The translations under genes were made by a program, and so were the position numbers. DNA of 62,460 bases, filler included, from Dugesia japonica (taxonomy: Eukaryota), in assembly GCA_001938525.1 (NCBI GenBank). It is 6 parts of 6 records of this genome, joined end to end, with 100 filler letters (N's around TTAATTAATTAA, not from the genome) between each part and the next. Parts side by side here need not be neighbours in the genome. Positions count along the whole stretch, not along the records: positions 27,198 to 41,386 come from MQRL01621029.1; 5 more parts are not named here. One strand, written 5' to 3'. Below the pieces are notes generated by a model that worked only from the letters and a program-made list of their open reading frames with translations, made no database searches and was not told the DNA's origin. Numbering within the stretch: position 1 is the first letter of the stretch; every line of letters begins with the position of its first letter. Positions 5,511 through 59,945 of the stretch are shown here, piece after piece.

Positions 5511-6913
5511 TTTCTTAAAATTAAAGAAGAAGAGTATTTTATTTAATATTTAATATAATATATTTTATTTTACTTAAGACTTATTTTGTTTAATTTTAAA
5601 AATTAATTTATCAATATCTTAAGATTAAAAAAATTATAAAATCTTTGATGAGGTCGAGATAACCAGAAATAACCCATTCTAACAGCAATATTAATCGCCG
5701 AACACGATTTATTTTACCACCTCTTATCCTCGGATACATTTCCTTCTATCAGCAATTTCAATTCTCAGAACACAACCATCTGTTCTTTCGGGGAGCAAAC
5801 TGGGATCATAGAGTGGACATTTTAAATTAAGGTTAAATGAAATAAAATATAAAATGACTTTTGTTTAATTTATAGCTCTCCACTTGTCCGTAAAGTAATG
5901 ATGATTCATGACTAACCAAGATTGTCAAATTTTTAAACTCAATATAGATTCTAAATAATTGGAAAATTGTTTCTAAGTTGTGTCTCGTTTCTTGGTGTAT
6001 ATTATATTTATTTAGTTGATGCACAACAACATTGAAACTGCCCATTAGCCATCCAATCGAGAACACTGTTTCCTAAATTCGACTTTCTTATTGGATGTCG
6101 CCATGTGTGCATTTCTTTTTCCTCTCACCTGGCTAACAAATTCTACGCACATCAACTCGTACTTTTTGATGAACGATTTTATTTCAGCTGGTCACCTCAT
6201 GTNNNNNNNNNNNNNNNNNNNNNNNNNNNNNNNNNNNNNNNNNNNNNNNNNNNNNNNNNNNNNNNNNTTACTATTTTCGTGTTCAGCAGACAAAGTACTA
6301 GTGACTGGATCAAAATTAATTAAAATAATAATAATATTAAACGGAAGCTTCAGTCGTATTATTTTAGATTATTTTTTATAACAATTAACACCATTTTCAT
6401 CTCATATTTTGCTGTAATTATCTTTTCTTTCTAAATTAGGGTCTTCTAAGCCTGATTTTCATTTTTTTCATAATAATTATAATACTAATAATTATACAAT
6501 AAAAATGATCATAATAATTATAATAGTCGAATTTCTAGTCCAGTACTAATTTTTTGTGTCTATTTTTCACTGTTTTTAGGAAACTTTTTAAAAAATTTTA
6601 CAACTTTTTTACCCAATGATTTTGCGATCTACCCAAAAATATATAATTCTATAAAAAAAGTATTTTTGAAAAAATAAAAATTAAATATTTAAAAAATATA
6701 TTAAAAAATTCTATCTTATGTAATTATTATTTTGATTTTTCAAAGATTCTTCAACTAAATAATTTTTCTTTAAATTATTCTTATTTGATTTTTATATGTT
6801 CCTTGTTAGATGATGTAATAATATGAAAAGTAAAATAATATTCATTAAATATTAAATTAAAATAAAGAAAAAGCTTCGATCAAAGTAAAATGCATTTTTA
6901 TAAAAACTCAAAT

Positions 6914-6940
6914 TTTCGACACAATTGTCTTCTTCAGGAA
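6914..6940 (-). ncRNA. minimal hammerhead ribozyme core (Penelope-type), stems I/III degraded
   Basis: Minus strand ttcCTGAAGA-a-GAC-aattgt-GTC-GAAA: intact CUGANGA/GAAA boxes with paired stem II. Confidence 0.5.
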
Positions 6941-7789
6941 TATGATGACTTTTAGATTCAATTGGATGATAGATCTTTGTTACAAAATTCTTTTATTTAA
7001 TCAAAATTTTATTGGTTTATCTAAATTATACATTTTTTATTAAAATTAAATGCATCCATGTACATATTCACATATATTAACTACTTTTGGTTCCTCTTCA
7101 ATAATCAACTCAGAACCATATCAGAATAAATTTGATTAACTATCTATTTGATATAAACTATTTCCTTGAGTATTATCATTCAAATCTTGATCACTGTATA
7201 TACAATTTTATTTTTGTCATTTTATTCAATTTTTTAAAATTTATCTATTACAAAATATAAAATGGTTTACTAAATTCGATTTATTCATTTCATTGCGAGT
7301 TGAAATAAGGTTTCTAGTAATTATTTTGATATGGGATTTCGAAATATTAATTTTCGAAATTTATTTAAGATATGTCGAAATTTTAATTTACTGAGTTTGT
7401 TTAATTCTGAAATTTAATTATTTTTATTTTAGTAAATTTTTATTTAAACAGTTGTATGTAATCTTAAGTGAATTATTGTATAAATAGTGACTGATTTTAA
7501 GTCCAATTCATCCACTTTTAAATTGCAAAAAGGGCTAATACTTACTAGGTAGTCGGACAGCAATAAAAATAATAACGCTGGAATTTAATTTGTAATAATT
7601 GAGATATAATAATAAATATTTTAAAAATAAATCTTTACATTACTTTAATAGTTGACTATATAGTATACTTATAATAATATCAATTATATATTAACGATAT
7701 TAAGTAACATATAAGGTTCTTCATATAACATTAATATAAGAAACATATAATTGAATTGTATGAGACTTTAAAATCATTAAAAACTCATG

Positions 7790-9507: not shown

Positions 9508-9607
9508 NNNNNNNNNNNNNNNNNNNNNNNNNNNNNNNNNNNNNNNNNNNNTTAATTAATTAANNNNNNNNNNNNNNNNNNNNNNNNNNNNNNNNNNNNN
9601 NNNNNNN
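9508..9607. other. artificial scaffold linker
   Basis: 44 N + TTAATTAATTAA (stops in all six frames) + 44 N. Confidence 0.95.
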
Positions 9608-10855: not shown

Positions 10856-11429
10856 ATCAATTTAAAATGTTTCACAAATAAATATAAATTTTACATATCT
10901 AGTTGGAACAACCAATAACTTATTCGTTGATTTCAATAATTAAATTTTAGAATTTGATAGAACTTTTTGAAATAAAAACAATTTTATTCAACTAGAAATA
11001 ATTAAAGAAAAATAAAATAAAATTTTAAATAATTTTACAATTACAATTATAGTGAGAATACTTGTTAGATTTAATAATTGAAGGCATTTGTAAAGTTTCA
11101 ATAAATTAAAGAGTTTCGATCAAAATGATATATTTTGCAAAAAGTTAATTCCCGAAGAAGACAATTGTTAAAACTTTGAATTACTTAGCAACAAAGAAAA
11201 ACAATATTTTAAATAATGTTGAAATTAAAAATTCAAATTTATTTTAGGTTTTTATAGTCTCTCTTTCCAATAACAAATGGTTCACTATAATCATTTTATA
11301 TATTAATTCATAAATCACGAAATAGTAAATTATTTACTTGCATTCTCTATGAATACGTATATGCAATTGTCATCTGAATCTATTCTCATTTCCATTTTTA
11401 TGTTTGTCTTATTGAATTTCAAAAGTCAA

Positions 11430-12764: not shown

Positions 12765-13400
12765 TTAATGAATGGCTCTGACCAACTCCTCTACTGATGG
12801 AGCCCTGCCTTTTGGGTATTCATTTCTCGGATCTACATCTTTTACTATGTTCCCAGAAAATATCTCTTCACTTTCATCATTGTTCTCCTCTCTAATTGCA
12901 TAGATTTTTTTGGTCCGACTCCAATCTTTCGTTTGTTGTCCGCTTTTAAAATTGTATCTTCTCTCTTCTAGTCGTGGTTTGTTTATGTTCAAATAACATT
13001 CTACCACTCTGTGACCTGGTCTTTTACATTTACCGAATATAATCTCAATGCACATCCTTCTGATGTCACCAATCTTACCACATCCAAAACATTTTGGTGG
13101 CTTCTTGTCTGGAAATTTTCTACTTAAATGCCTTTTCTTGTGGACAATCCAGCATTCCACTTGTGAATTTTTGGGGCACTCTGTTTTTGTGTGCCCATAA
13201 CTCTGGCATGTCCAACACTGTGGTTCTGTTATTTTCGTAACTCTCTTAATGTTTCGTCTCCTGTCTCTGGTACCTTCTTCACGAGTTACTCCCGCGTAAC
13301 TCTTCACAACGTTAATAAGTTCTTTTCTTTCTATTTTTCAACTAGTGAAAGTGTTCCTTTATATTTTCTACTTTCTCCAATTTCTGCATGATTAACTCTT
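12765..13400 (-). mobile_element. gag: Ty3/Gypsy gag C-terminal fragment with CCHC zinc knuckles
   Basis: CWTCQSYGHTKTEC, CFGCGKIGDIRRMC, GKCKRPGHRVVEC; C-terminal YPKGRAPSVEELVRAIH* resembles YPNDRVLLLNKLLKTIH* at ~37383-37435. Confidence 0.8.
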
Positions 13401-16589: not shown

Positions 16590-17000
16590 TCTATATCGAT
16601 TCAAAAATAGTAGTCTTGAATTTGAAAGTAGTCAACTTTGAAATTAAAGTTCATTTAATGAAATTTGTTTATTTTTAAAGGTCACCTAAATGTAACATTA
16701 TAATGTTAGCAGACAAATATAAATATTGAATATTAGCAAACAATGATTATAAATAATTTTATAATGAAATACTATACTATATACACTTTTATACATTTAT
16801 GATAAATCTTTAATAATACAATTATGATAATAATACTTTACTGATTTTATTTTAATTTTCCGATCATATAATTTCATTTTACAATATTAATACCAATAAT
16901 AATAATTTTAATTTAATAATAATAATCATTCTTTATTCTATTTTATAATTACAATTATTGTGAGAATAATTGTTGGACTTAACCATTGATCGCATTTGAG

Positions 17001-17096
17001 ATTTCATTAAAATAAGAAAAAGCTTCGATCAAAATAAAATTTATTTTACAAAATAAATTTTATTTTGATCGAAGCTTTTTCTTATTTTAATGAAAT
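17001..17096. repeat. perfect 47-bp inverted repeat with 2-nt loop
   Basis: 17001-17047 is the exact reverse complement of 17050-17096. Confidence 0.95.
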
Positions 17097-24719: not shown

Positions 24720-25614
24720 ATCATTGTAGACCAGAAAAGACTATAAACAAGCAATAATTGACCATCTCTATGAAATTTCTTACTAAAATTTACCATCCAT
24801 AAATAATTCTCAATCAAAAGGGACTTTTATTATTAGTGAACAAAATTAGTATTACCGAGGAAATTCCTTACCAAAACTAATCAGAACTGCCAAAATTGAC
24901 GAAAGCCCAAAATACTATAAAACATTCCATCAGAAATAGACCAAAACTAACTTTTCCGAGTAAATGTTCAACCAAAATCAATAGTACGAAAATATCTTGC
25001 ACTACTTCAATCGTCTAGTATTTCCTCTACATTGGGCATCAAAAATGCCCGTTTTTACTATCAAAACTCGATTTCATAACAAAATCTTTGGTCAAACAAA
25101 AGCTATAAACATAAATTTTCTTTANNNNNNNNNNNNNNNNNNNNNNNNNNNNNNNNNNNNNNNNNNNNNNNNNNATCATTGTAGACCAGAAAAGACTATA
25201 AACAAGCAATAATTGACCATCTCTATGAAATTTCTTACTAAAATTTACTATCCATAAATAATTCTTAATCAAAAGGGACCATGTATAGAAAATCATCAAT
25301 GTAAATGGAAACTTTTATTATAAGTGAACAAAATTAGTATTACCGAGGAAATTCCTTACCAAAACTAATCAGAACTGCCAAAATTGACGAAAGCCCAAAA
25401 TACTATAAAACATTCCATCAGAAATAGACCAAAACTAACTTTTCCGAGTAAATGTTCAACCAAAATCAATAGTACGAAAATATCTTGCACTACTTCAATC
25501 GTCTAGTATTTCCTCTACATTGGGCATCAAAAATGCCCGTTTTTACTATCAAAACTCGATTTCATAACAAAATCTTTGGTCAAACAAAAGCTATAAACAT
25601 AAATTTTCTTTATT
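24720..25614. repeat. near-identical direct duplication across an N gap
   Basis: 24720-25124 repeats at 25175-25614 with a few SNPs and a ~30-bp indel; likely uncollapsed haplotypes. Confidence 0.85.
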
Positions 25615-27197: not shown

Positions 27198-27895
27198 CAT
27201 AAAAATCAAAACTATATTTTCAAAGTTATTTCCCCATTAAAATTTGATTTTCTAATAACAGTAAACGGAAATACCAATAACTGGTAATTAGAACACAATT
27301 TACCAAGAAACGATTACATTAATATGTTCCCATAATGATATCAATATTCATTCCTAGAAAAATTGCCATAATTGATGTTTCTATGGGTACTTTCAAAAAG
27401 GGTTCAAATAATACAAATGTCTTATTTTTTGAAAACATGATGGCAAAAATAATATTATTAGAATAAACTGAAAAATACAATGGTTGGCGTCCTCCTCGAT
27501 AAAGATTTGTTGAACCCAAAGAGTTCTACAGCCACTTCCCTTAATCGAATCTTTAATTGTATTCCTCACTTATGTTCCCTNGCCGCTCTTGGTGAGAGTC
27601 CTCTTATGACTTCTGATTCTAACTGAAGATCAAGTCAAAATATATCATCTATGATTTCTGGTACCATAGTTTATCATTTCTTTAAAACCTTTTGTTTCTT
27701 TCATGCAAATGTTGAATGGACATTTAATGGTAGACATTTTTGATATTGCTTTCCTAGTTTCTCTGAAACATTTTGAAATTTTCACTCTCTTTTCACATTC
27801 ACTTTTAAATTTATTTTAATCTTATTTTATTGGATTGATTGCGTAACAAGTTTAATTGGTCAGTATATAAACAATTTCTTTCTTATTTCACAACA

Positions 27896-27937
27896 GTAAC
27901 TTATGATGGACCTAGTTTTGTCCGAAACATGTATTAC
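27896..27937 (+). ncRNA. minimal type I hammerhead ribozyme (one core substitution, G5U)
   Basis: GTAA-CTTATGA-T-GGAC-ctagtttt-GTCC-GAAA-CATG-TA-TTAC: stem I gtaa/ttac, stem II ggac/gtcc, palindromic stem III ACATGT, GUA cleavage triplet; TATATAAA upstream and AATAAA downstream. Confidence 0.7.
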
Positions 27938-28230
27938 AAATAAAAGTTTTAAAAAATTGCGTTTTTTTATTTTATTTAGATCAAAGCAATTTGTTCAATA
28001 TTTTTTTGAAGATAATTTATATATATATAGATGCTTACTTTTTGCTTTATTATTTCTTTCATTTCTTTCAATCTGTCTTTGATATTCCTTTCTTCTTTCT
28101 CAACACTTTTTCCAATTATTTTTTTGATTAGTTTTTATCTTCTTTAAATTTTTCACCCCACCACTATGTATGTCTTCCGTTGATTTTAGTACCGTTTTTC
28201 ATTTCATCTAAAATACTATATTAATTTCAA

Positions 28231-28846
28231 AATTACAATTATTATGAGAACATTTGTTGCATTTAACCATTGATCGTATTTGAAATTTTTTTAAATTTAA
28301 GGCTTCAATCAAAATGTAGTTTTTTTTTCATATTTTTTTAGTTGTTTTTAGTATTTCGAATTTTTTTACTTTTGTTTTTAACGGGAAATAACGTTTTTCT
28401 CTAAACTTTTCTTCTTTTAATTGTAAAAAAGTTAATTCCTGAAGAAGATAAAAGTTGAAACTTCGAAATACTACCAACAATTTAAAAATGTTTTAACAAA
28501 AAACAACATTTTTCATCAAAAGCTTTTAATTTAATAAAATCGTTAACACTAAAATTTAAACAAAAATATTAAACAACTGAATATTTAGATTAAAACTTTT
28601 GGAAAGGCATATAAAGAAAAGAAGCAAAAAGATGTTTAATTGGACGTTTTTAAATTACAAATAAGCCACAGTTTTACAATTACAATTATTGTAAGAATAA
28701 TTGTTGGACTTAACTATTGATCGTGTTGGAGATTTCATTAAATTATTTTCATTGGTTCTTGATAGTAGCTCTTGAAATACTATCAAGAACTAAAAAATGA
28801 ATGTAAAAAAGAAAAACAATATTTTGATCGATGCTTTTAATTTGAT
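28231..28846. repeat. compound Penelope-type pseudo-LTR repeat with direct and inverted subcopies
   Basis: ttacaattattgtgagaat..cattgatcg unit at ~28233 and ~28680; inverted subcopy 28330-28392; ttcCTGAAGAaga..aagt-tgaa-actt-cGAAA at ~28437; hairpin gttcttgatagta/tactatcaagaac ~28756-28790. Confidence 0.6.
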
Positions 28847-42159: not shown

Positions 42160-42556
42160 TAATATTTATGGATCATAGGAGTGGGTACTGGCAAGATCAA
42201 GAAGAAAGATAGGAAGTAAACAACATTTTCAGCAGTAAAAGACCTATACCAATTCATCAGAATGCCATTTAGACTAACTAAAGCCCCAGCGTATTTTCAA
42301 CGTTGTATGAATATAAATGAAATCCCACATAGTATGGTATATATAGATGACTTGCTAATATATTCGGCAACATTCGAAGAACACCTTGCTGATATCAGAA
42401 AAGTATTTGTACAACTTAGAAAATATGATTTGAAAGTTAAACCAACAAAATTTAAATGGGCAAAGAACAAGTTTACTTATTTAGGACACTTAATCACAGA
42501 CAAAGGTAAAGAACCCGATCCGAGGAATACCGCAAAAATCAGAGAATTCTCAGCAC
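42160..42556 (+). mobile_element. pol: Ty3/Gypsy reverse transcriptase fragment
   Basis: SGYWQ, MPFRL..APAYFQRCM, VYIDDLLIYS, YLGHLIT.KG..PDP. Confidence 0.9.
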
Positions 42557-44150
42557 CTAACTTGTTTTTATTATTTCTTCTATTAATTGAAACTTTTTAT
42601 ATGTTCCATCTTTTAAATCATTCTTTATCTGTTCAATTTCTTCTACGTTACTTTGCCATTTATATGTATCTGAATCTGTTATACCATTAATTGTTCTTGT
42701 CTTTATTTTTCCTTCCTTTGGATTCTCATGATATGTTAAGCATTTTACACACGTACCACAATTCATTTTCGACTGCATATCTGCATTCATGTGTTTCACA
42801 CCTTGTCTAAATTTTAATACCATATCTAGGCTACTAAGAAAATTCATTTAAGTCTGAAATTGCGGAGTAATTGGCTTGTGTGTCTTTTTCATAAATGCTA
42901 TCGCTGTGTGATCTGTTATCACCAAAAATCTTTTTCCATACAGATAATGTTTAAAATCGTTACATAAATAGTAAATGGCCAATAATTCTTTTCTTGTTAT
43001 ACAATATCCCTTTTCATGAGCTGACATGGCATGTGACTCATATGAAATGACTTGTTCTACACCTGTTCCATCTATTTGCGATAAAACTCCTCCGATGGCA
43101 TCAAAGCTCGCATCTGTATCTAGTACAAACATCTTTTTGATATCGGGAAAACTCAATATCGGTGCTTTTGTTAATGCCTCTTTCATCTCATTAAAAGCTT
43201 TATCACAACTTTCCGACCACACAAGTTTTGTATTATTACTTCTACATAGCTCTTCTAAGCTTCTAGCTTTCTTTGAGTAATTATTGATAAGCCGTCTATA
43301 GTAGTTGCATATTCCTAAAAAGCTTCTCAAGTTCTTTACACATTTAGGTCTTCCGAAATTTTGTATAGCTTCAATTTTTGTTGGATCAGTTTGAATTCCA
43401 TTCTTATCTATGTCATGTCCTAAAATTTGACTTCTGCTCGCAGTAAAATACATTTTCCGGATAAATTCTAAATCCTGATTCTTGATTCTTTTAAAAACTT
43501 GGTTTAAATTTCTATAGTGCTGCTCTAGATTTTCCGAAAATATCAATATATCATTCATGTATACCATCGTTCCTCTCAATCTTCCTAAGACTTTTGTCAT
43601 TAGTTCTTGAAACGTTCCAGGTGCTGCAGCTATACCAAAAGGCATTCTTGGGAAACAATACTGTCCATTTTTCGTAGAAAATGCTGTTTTCTCTTGTGAA
43701 TATTTATTTAACGGAACTTGATAATATGCATTACCAAAATCAATAGTACTAAAATATCTAGCACCACAAAAAAATGTCTAGTATTTCCTCTACATTGAGC
43801 ATCGGAAATGCCTGTCTTTCTGTGATTGTATTCAGTTTTCTAAAATCAAGATATAATCTAACGTCTTTCCTTTCTTTTTTCCAAGCACATATTAACGGAG
43901 TGTTCCATTGAGAATTACACTTCCTAATAATGCCATTGTCAAACAAATTCTTGGTAGCTTCATCTATCTTATTCTCTAAATGCATTGGTTGTCTCCATGG
44001 TTTCGTATTTATTGGTTCTCCATTTGTGATTATTTGATGTTCTGCCATTGTTGTTCTGCCGATATCCCAGTGGTCTGCCATGAATATTCCTTTACGAATC
44101 ATTATAACTTTCTCTAAATTCTCATTTGGTTTGTTAATCAATATTTTTAT
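42557..44150 (-). mobile_element. pol: Ty3/Gypsy RT-RNase H fragment (same family as 36348-40000)
   Basis: IIRKCNSQWNTP, LYLDFRKLN, GNAYYQV, MPFGIAAAPGTFQ, YMND, LRSFLGICNYYRR, LDTDASFDAIGGVLSQ, YCITRKELLAI, TDH, HMNAD. Confidence 0.95.
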
Positions 44151-44179
44151 TGCTCTCTAAACTCTTCAAATCAGTTTAC

Positions 44180-59149: not shown

Positions 59150-59490
59150 TAAAAAAGACAAAGCTTTTGTGGTCCCAAATGCATTTTTGATGGTAGAAAT
59201 ATATGCAATAAGAAAAATGTCACTTATAAAATAACATGCACCATTTTTCATGAAACATATATTAGTGAAACATGCAGAACCATCCAAACAAGAATTAAGG
59301 AACATCTGAAACAAAAAGAAAGCGAAGTCTTCAAACACTTTCAACACAAACATAAAATTTCACCAGAACAACATCACTTAACATGGAAAAAAACTAGGAA
59401 CAGGCTACATTTATACACTTTATAGAAAGAACATGAGAATTACTAATTAAAGAAGATAATCCTAAAATCAATGTAATTTATAATAATAAA
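59150..59490 (+). mobile_element. Penelope-like element GIY-YIG endonuclease fragment
   Basis: CGPKC....ICNKKNVTYKITCTIFHETYISETCRTIQTRIKEH...VFKHFQHKH...LLIKEDNPKIN. Confidence 0.88.
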
Positions 59491-59667: not shown

Positions 59668-59698
59668 TTCAATATTTCGGCTATGCCTTCTTCATGAA
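59668..59698 (-). ncRNA. degenerate minimal hammerhead motif
   Basis: Minus strand ttc-ATGAAGA-a-GGC-ata-GCC-GAAA-tatt-gaa; C3 replaced by A. Confidence 0.45.
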
Positions 59699-59945
59699 TA
59701 GGTCAAAATATATGACACCGCGATAATCCCACTAAACCGACATCACTATCTGATGAGAATGAAATCCTGCTTTGGTTGTAACGTTAAATACCCGCATTTC
59801 ATTTTCTGTTAACATTAAAAGAGAAAAAGAAATTTCTAACACCTGTATAGAAGCAAATGTCTACAACCAAAGCAGGATTTCATTCTCACCAGACAGTGAT
59901 GTCTGTTTGGTGGGATTATCGAGGTGTCATATATTTTGACCTATT
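59697..59945. repeat. 84-bp inverted repeat built from mariner coding sequence
   Basis: 59697-59780 pairs with 59862-59945 (5 mismatches); right arm reads TTKAGFHSHQTVMSVWWDYRGVIYFDLL. Confidence 0.88.

Follow-up and report, generated by a model that had tools for sequence, protein, structure and literature searches.

A motif resembling a minimal hammerhead ribozyme is present at positions 27896–27937 of a 62,460-nt stretch of Dugesia japonica DNA (the window). This raises the question whether the motif belongs to a true ribozyme family and, if so, what kind of genetic element carries it. The window consists of AT-rich eukaryote-like DNA (18–35% GC per 2 kb) with retroelement debris. By inspection of the sequence, all pieces of a minimal type I hammerhead described in a first-pass annotation were found on the plus strand. 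Stem I has 4 bp (GTAA 27896–27899 and TTAC 27934–27937). It is followed by the core box CTTATGA (27900–27906, with C3 at 27900 and A9 at 27906), in which core position 5 (27902) is U in place of G (G5U), and by an extra T at 27907, the unpaired base after A9. Stem II is formed by GGAC (27908–27911) and GTCC (27920–27923), G10.1 at 27908 pairing with C11.1 at 27923. GAAA (27924–27927), the palindrome ACATGT (27927–27932) as a minimal helix III and a GUA triplet with A17 at 27933 complete the motif, and the cut is predicted after 27933. The motifs ATTGG and TATATAAA upstream and AATAAA (27939–27944) directly 3' of the hammerhead were likewise borne out at every coordinate.

Sibling copies of the sequence around the motif were collected from contig sets X1, X2 and X4 and from raw RNA runs X16–X20 (same species label), aligned at 80% likeness. 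The five RNA runs yielded 331, 28, 21, 279 and 390 aligned reads, which were mostly less than 95% alike and thus come from sibling copies. Summed contig depth, which is no copy number, was 7–9 in the left flank, 6.5×10^3–2.6×10^5 at about 27794–28019 and 12–140 beyond. The family letter at 27902 was found in 97, 106 and 108 distinct contigs (counting up to 128), which puts the size of the family at hundreds of copies or more. Among the matches listed, loose ends of contigs and reads pile up at 27794–27797, 27975 and 28014. Both junctions of this copy occur in contigs with 0 differences, and X1 may be near the window's own source. The depth profile and the junction contigs together define a unit of 221–227 bp (27794–28020, plus strand, 3' end at 28014–28020). 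The unit had initially been put at about 150 bp, a size that does not hold, and siblings continue at both ends. It is the one copy of this family in the window, no second copy being found upon comparison of the window with itself. No target-site duplication was seen around it. Among the contigs listed, one head-to-tail joint (X2) and one opposite-strand joint were present.

The 5' end of this copy is a truncation, since siblings extend upstream of 27794. They run past 27794–27797 in one common sequence, in at least 68 + 42 + 33 contigs of X1 and at least 129 + 16 + 19 reads of X19. Positions 27796–27819 (plus strand) likely hold the last codons and the stop of an upstream ORF (HSLLNLF-stop, TAA at 27817–27819). 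When the 30 loose letters of siblings 5' of 27794 were read by hand, the frame was open and contained an Asn-Pro-x-x-Asn motif. The same motif is found at the C-termini of three proteins with reverse transcriptase (RT) and GIY-YIG domains (P0002, P0004 and P0005), which were retrieved by means of a remnant in another part of the window; this is a likeness of few residues and no domain match. It is therefore likely, as inferred from these residues, that 27796–27819 is the GIY-YIG end of the upstream ORF.

A second open frame starts inside the hammerhead. The ATG at 27906–27908 is made up of A9, the extra U and G10.1, and the frame 27906–28019 (plus strand) likely represents the first 38 codons of the element's ORF, with the predicted cut site 28 nt into it. 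Among 1.84 billion proteins searched with HMMER, the only match of this ORF start was P0016 (E 4.4e-5), an unnamed protein of 138 aa from one 624-nt contig, which aligns from residue 1 with 25 of 42 residues identical. Past 28020, 18 X4 contigs continue in one sequence (agreement 0.82), in which the frame stays open over the 10 codons visible; seven of these agree with P0016 residues 43–52 when read by hand. P0016 contains the FLxxCR...P motif of the N-termini of Penelope-like elements (PLEs), with a score of 12.9 bits against a profile built from eight of these termini, which one of 2000 shuffles reached; comparison with PLE N-termini by hhalign gave a weak match (probability 15.5%, E 0.0017). 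No Pfam family was assigned to P0016 and nothing above chance was found in the ESM Atlas. A word-indexed protein search with the ORF start returned no candidate, and a search seeded with four aligned PLE proteins gave 13 PLE proteins, none of which begins like this ORF. The searches gave no RT or GIY-YIG domain and no full-length protein of this repeat family, of which only the two ORF ends were seen. A link of the repeat to a PLE ORF is likely; the evidence for it consists of the 30-nt loose ends and the weak match of a single unnamed protein of 138 aa.

Two common 3' ends were found in the family, at +70 and +109 of the ORF, 39 nt apart. Siblings leave the alignment behind 27975 (at least 37, 40 and 32 contigs) and behind 28014 (at least 30 and 30 contigs; at least 10 and 14 reads), in both cases followed by AT/TA runs. 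The 39 nt between these ends (27976–28014, plus strand) form an optional 3' extension or tail. An optional tail of 30–40 bp is described in PLE insertions (PMC8557442), and in the PLE PAc (Poseidon_Ac) of Anolis carolinensis the tail is linked to reverse transcription starting at two internal sites (Frangieh et al. 2024, PMC11167929). The 39-nt gap fits the optional PLE tail. A (TA)6 run at the 3' junction (28018–28029) is the likely target site; TA-run targets are noted for Naiad and a microsatellite bias for Neptune, neither of which singles out a PLE clade for this family.

Taken as a whole, the locus is very probably a copy of a very abundant repeat, likely a 5'-truncated PLE end (pseudo-LTR plus tail), carrying a hammerhead with a predicted-inactivating G5U change. 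The order of stop, TATA, hammerhead with ATG, first codons and tail is, by analogy with described elements, the known anatomy of a pseudo-LTR (pLTR). The pLTR of Pen2a_Av from Adineta vaga (Arkhipova et al. 2013, PMC3846280) is described as 218 bp long, compared to about 220 bp here, and has a TATA motif, an Inr-like motif 20–22 nt further on, the first ORF codons and an optional tail. Its coding part and tail comprise 12 codons and 31 nt, whereas 23 codons and 39 nt are found here, and Pen2a_Av is reported as single-copy with a full ORF, while the present copy is a solitary end from a family of high copy number. PAc, as described in PMC11167929, resembles the present family in that the ORF opens where stem II begins, with the cut site 26 nt further on (28 nt here), two 3' ends inside the ORF define the tail, the targets are AT-rich and no RNA-seq pile-up is reported at the cut site. 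The 3' ends at +70 and +109 stand against a main start of 111–118 in PAc, a comparison by description and not by sequence.

A second PLE family (RT plus GIY-YIG), with hammerheads of its own, is scattered over the window. At 59156–59487 (plus strand) a frameshifted GIY-YIG end of a PLE ORF is 79% identical to P0002 (843 aa, RT plus GIY-YIG), and on the opposite strand a hammerhead with C3A is located at 59668–59698. An inverted duplication (59697–59780 and 59862–59945) has its second arm ending just before this C3A hammerhead. The repeat copy studied here is separated by about 200 bp from a group of fragments of the second family, which has minus-strand ORF starts from 28225 on. PLEs are described as inserting near each other (PMC6765202), and the closeness of the two families would be in line with this. 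A dispersed repeat of 74 nt (family D8) at 11028–11087, 16942–16995, 28225–28298 and 28667–28723, all on the minus strand, encodes the first 18–20 residues of the P0002-like ORF. In the P0002-like family the hammerhead ends well before the ATG, whereas in the 27794–28020 family the ATG lies inside it.

Several other features were recorded in the window. A second minimal hammerhead at 6906–6941 (minus strand), belonging to another repeat family, has a perfect CUGAAGA box, a 4-bp stem II and an AAUU palindrome; degenerate relatives lie near 945 (plus), 11148–11168 (minus), 28439 (plus) and 39806 (plus). Fold-back pairs occur at 17001–17096 and 28285–28540. Broken LTR-retrotransposon remnants are present at 42220–44156 and 12768–13337, with minus-strand RT and RNase H domains and a zinc-knuckle gag-like frame. 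A near-identical direct duplication (24720–25122 and 25175–25610) lies across a 50-N gap and is possibly an assembly artefact. Five 100-nt blocks (44 N, TTAATTAATTAA, 44 N) at 9508, 18662, 27098, 41387 and 52494, with stops in six frames, are likely gap spacers and not biology.

In the strongest competing explanation to the truncated PLE end, a Penelope pLTR gave rise to a short non-autonomous element or to a retrozyme monomer, whose fixed-length, perhaps circular RNA is copied by partner enzymes. The very high depth for such a short unit would suit this explanation, as would the X2 contig that runs from 28005 to 27794, head to tail, with the letters between not known, and monomers of pLTR-derived retrozymes are described as common (Li, Clavereau and Pollet 2026, bioRxiv 10.64898/2026.07.22.740005). 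The non-LTR retrozymes described there share with the present family a type I hammerhead, a relation to pLTRs, a unit of a few hundred bases and dispersed monomers. They are, however, recognized by a working definition of at least two tandem hammerhead units; since there is no tandem array at this place and a single copy in the window, the element is not a retrozyme by that definition, and its siblings enter coding sequence on both sides. The head-to-tail joint was seen in one of 3185 X2 contigs and in none listed in X1 or X4, while the contigs and reads that continue 5' of 27794 into the ORF end number in the hundreds and 18 contigs run 3' into the ORF. No back-joint of a circular RNA was listed among the RNA reads, which derive from mostly oligo-dT libraries, a type that loses circles. 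We consider this explanation quite improbable, and of the initial proposal of a pseudo-LTR or retrozyme-like unit, the pseudo-LTR part is retained and the retrozyme part is not.

The first-pass annotation had also regarded the locus as a self-contained cassette of promoter, ribozyme and poly(A) signal. The candidate promoter motifs are ATTGG (27855–27859) and TATATAAA (27864–27871), both on the plus strand. A combination of the two within 2–10 nt arises in 20 of 100 shuffles, and no variant of 25% or more was found at their places in four runs. A promoter function is plausible by comparison with the TATA plus Inr-like pair in the Adineta pLTR. In the read tables, many siblings switch to other sequences after 27840 and 27859, in some cases with CCAAT immediately in front of a TATAAA-like motif, and subfamilies seem to differ in this candidate promoter region. 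A pyrimidine run (27874–27896, plus strand) ends in CAG (27894–27896), with A27895 located 31 nt after the first T of the TATA motif. This CAG may be an initiator-like site or, since the intron of D. virilis Penelope ends at helix I (PMC4209133), a 3' splice site; the promoter of D. virilis Penelope is described as TATA-less and internal (PMC2377424). Among the listings of the five RNA runs, neither an RNA joint nor an accumulation of ends was seen at the CAG, which is a weak test. Nor did ends pile up at 27933 in these runs, whose fragmented, mostly oligo-dT libraries cannot show cleavage. RNA first mates fell on both strands in similar numbers, the strandedness of the libraries not being given.

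Transcribed as a mini-gene, such a cassette would give a short polyadenylated RNA from a CCAAT/TATA promoter. The three motifs do occur in that order, without a variant of 25% or more at any of them in the complete list. AATAAA, however, occurs 432 times in the window, and at 27939–27944 it encodes Asn-Lys in the frame shared with P0016; its position 27943 is G in 36–43% of contig depth (X1, X2). RNA reads pass 27944 and continue to 28014, their ends showing no accumulation, and the loose ends listed contained no poly(A), although this is a weak test of polyadenylation. The genomic copies end in AT/TA runs, not in poly(A). The role of AATAAA as a poly(A) end and, with siblings extending on both sides, the self-contained cassette were therefore abandoned, and a mini-gene of this kind appears very improbable.

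The truncated PLE end is thus the preferred reading, and the siblings show what its hammerhead looks like in the family. G is present at 27902 in 5079/5358 (X1), 6979/7588 (X2) and 7607/7903 (X4) of contig depth, or 92–96%, and in 88/95, 5/5, 5/7, 76/84 and 88/97 RNA reads (262 of 288 in total), which gives CUGAUGA as the family box. The family thereby has the full core of CUGANGA, GAAA and UH, which this copy lacks by G5U. Position 27912 is A in 99% of depth (85474/85682 in X4) and in 80/85 and 87/92 reads, providing the family with a fifth stem II pair (27912/27919) that is lost in this copy, where stem II has 4 bp. Position 17 (27933) is A or C in siblings, with C in 43/79, 40/79 and 60/104 reads. 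The complete list of variants of 25% or more (29 rows) contains none at 27896–27901, 27903–27911, 27920–27932 and 27934–27936. At 27937, A instead of C is found in 42–52% of contig depth, yet only in 2/78, 5/78 and 12/103 RNA reads. The A would break the outer stem I pair in part of the family, whose stem I may be shortened or built differently. In the pooled read tables, no compensatory stem changes within the family were listed at 25% or more, only the one-sided gain at 27912/27919.

Changes of G5 are described as reducing hammerhead activity more than 100-fold, G5A being a standard dead control (PMC4075628), and the hammerhead of this copy is predicted to be inactive on that ground. None of the contigs listed spans 27902 with 0 differences, and the U of this copy is without a second confirmation. 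The initial expectations that this copy is probably inactive and that siblings may be intact, to be recognized by CTGATGA or CUGANGA in paralogues, agree with these data, as does the assignment to the minimal type I hammerheads of the Penelope kind, whose core, unpaired base and palindrome fit. In the PLE hammerheads described by Cervera and de la Pena (2014, PMC4209133), the 4-bp helix I, the unpaired base between A9 and 10.1, the G10.1-C11.1 pair and the palindromic 15.2–16.2 with a 2-nt loop are alike, and these too are mostly solitary and present in many copies. Stem II differs, being 7–8 bp long in Schistosoma but 5 bp in this family and 4 bp in this copy, which also has G5U.

A metagenome scan for the intact core, with a pattern that favoured a broken stem I, yielded at least 106 loci (L001–L106) with 118 cores. 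Among the matches listed, the hammerhead alone aligns with the present element, in nine alignments of 36–44 nt. These loci average about 40% GC, show no PLE ORF match and often contain inverted pairs, with the extra U present and the ACAUGU palindrome in 103 of 118 cores; they are repeat families of other hosts. The fifth stem II pair is A-U in 98 and G-C in 14 of the 118 cores listed. No stem I pair at all was present in 92 of 118, and since the scan pattern selected a broken stem I, the loci are uninformative on this stem.

With a strict type I descriptor (no more than one mismatch in the box, four or more Watson-Crick pairs in each of stems I and II), the whole window was matched solely at 27896–27937. 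The ACATGT palindrome (27927–27932) forms a self-duplex of −4.6 kcal/mol. Of 11 Rfam matches up to E 10, none overlaps the hammerhead site, and the folding energy of the 42-mer was not better than that of shuffles (z −1.5, 17 of 200 as good), as expected for a motif so small. A chance match in AT-rich DNA, with which the missing Rfam match and the plain folding energy would agree, is practically ruled out by the strict descriptor's single match when the whole window was simulated 60 times with an order-3 Markov model, by the A-U/G-C exchange at the fifth stem II pair of the core in unrelated repeat families and, as the strongest proof, by the family consensus, in which sibling reads and contigs restore the box and lengthen stem II.

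By analogy with PAc and Penelope, insertion of such an element would start with the element's protein nicking a TA-rich target. Reverse transcription would begin inside the element RNA, about 70 or 109 nt into the ORF, and cDNA synthesis would then proceed back through the hammerhead and the promoter region and halt some 220 nt later, having just entered the end of the previous ORF. Within an intact tandem, the same segment would supply the next unit with its promoter and 5' end, a role described for the pLTR in an intact partial PLE tandem (PMC6765202). The present copy is a lone one without a downstream ORF and is decaying. Minimal hammerheads are described as cutting poorly and as dimers (PMC4209133; for the dimer, Lunse et al. 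as cited in the review PMC6765202), and protein-aided cleavage has been reported for PAc, in which cleavage is not needed for insertion in vitro (PMC11167929). The hammerhead of the family would accordingly cut slowly, as a dimer via the ACAUGU palindrome or with the element protein, 28 nt into the ORF.

Judged from the TATA motif, transcription would start at about 27895, the base preceding stem I, and the hammerhead would thereby form the capped 5' end of the mRNA and contain the AUG. Cleavage could then act as an off-switch of translation triggered by the dimer or the protein, instead of excising a monomer. We regard this idea as rather unlikely. If true, cleavage 28 nt into the ORF would remove the cap and the start codon and stop translation as element RNA or protein accumulates. 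In a narrow search of titles and abstract openings, the idea was not found stated in the literature. Other ribozymes linked to translation initiation are described as cutting upstream of the start codon (PMC13725137), whereas the layout here is the opposite, with the cut downstream of the ATG.

The repeat family is new and its kind well known, although the supplements of PMC4209133 may already list it; judged by title, no publication on Penelope hammerheads in Schmidtea was found. This copy matters little by itself, being damaged and solitary, and pLTR hammerheads of this type have been described in thousands per genome. The family is compact and of very high copy number, and the positions of its promoter motifs, hammerhead, start codon and two tail ends can be fixed to the base; it would thus be a handy subject for studying the role of weak PLE ribozymes, be it processing, translation control or nothing.
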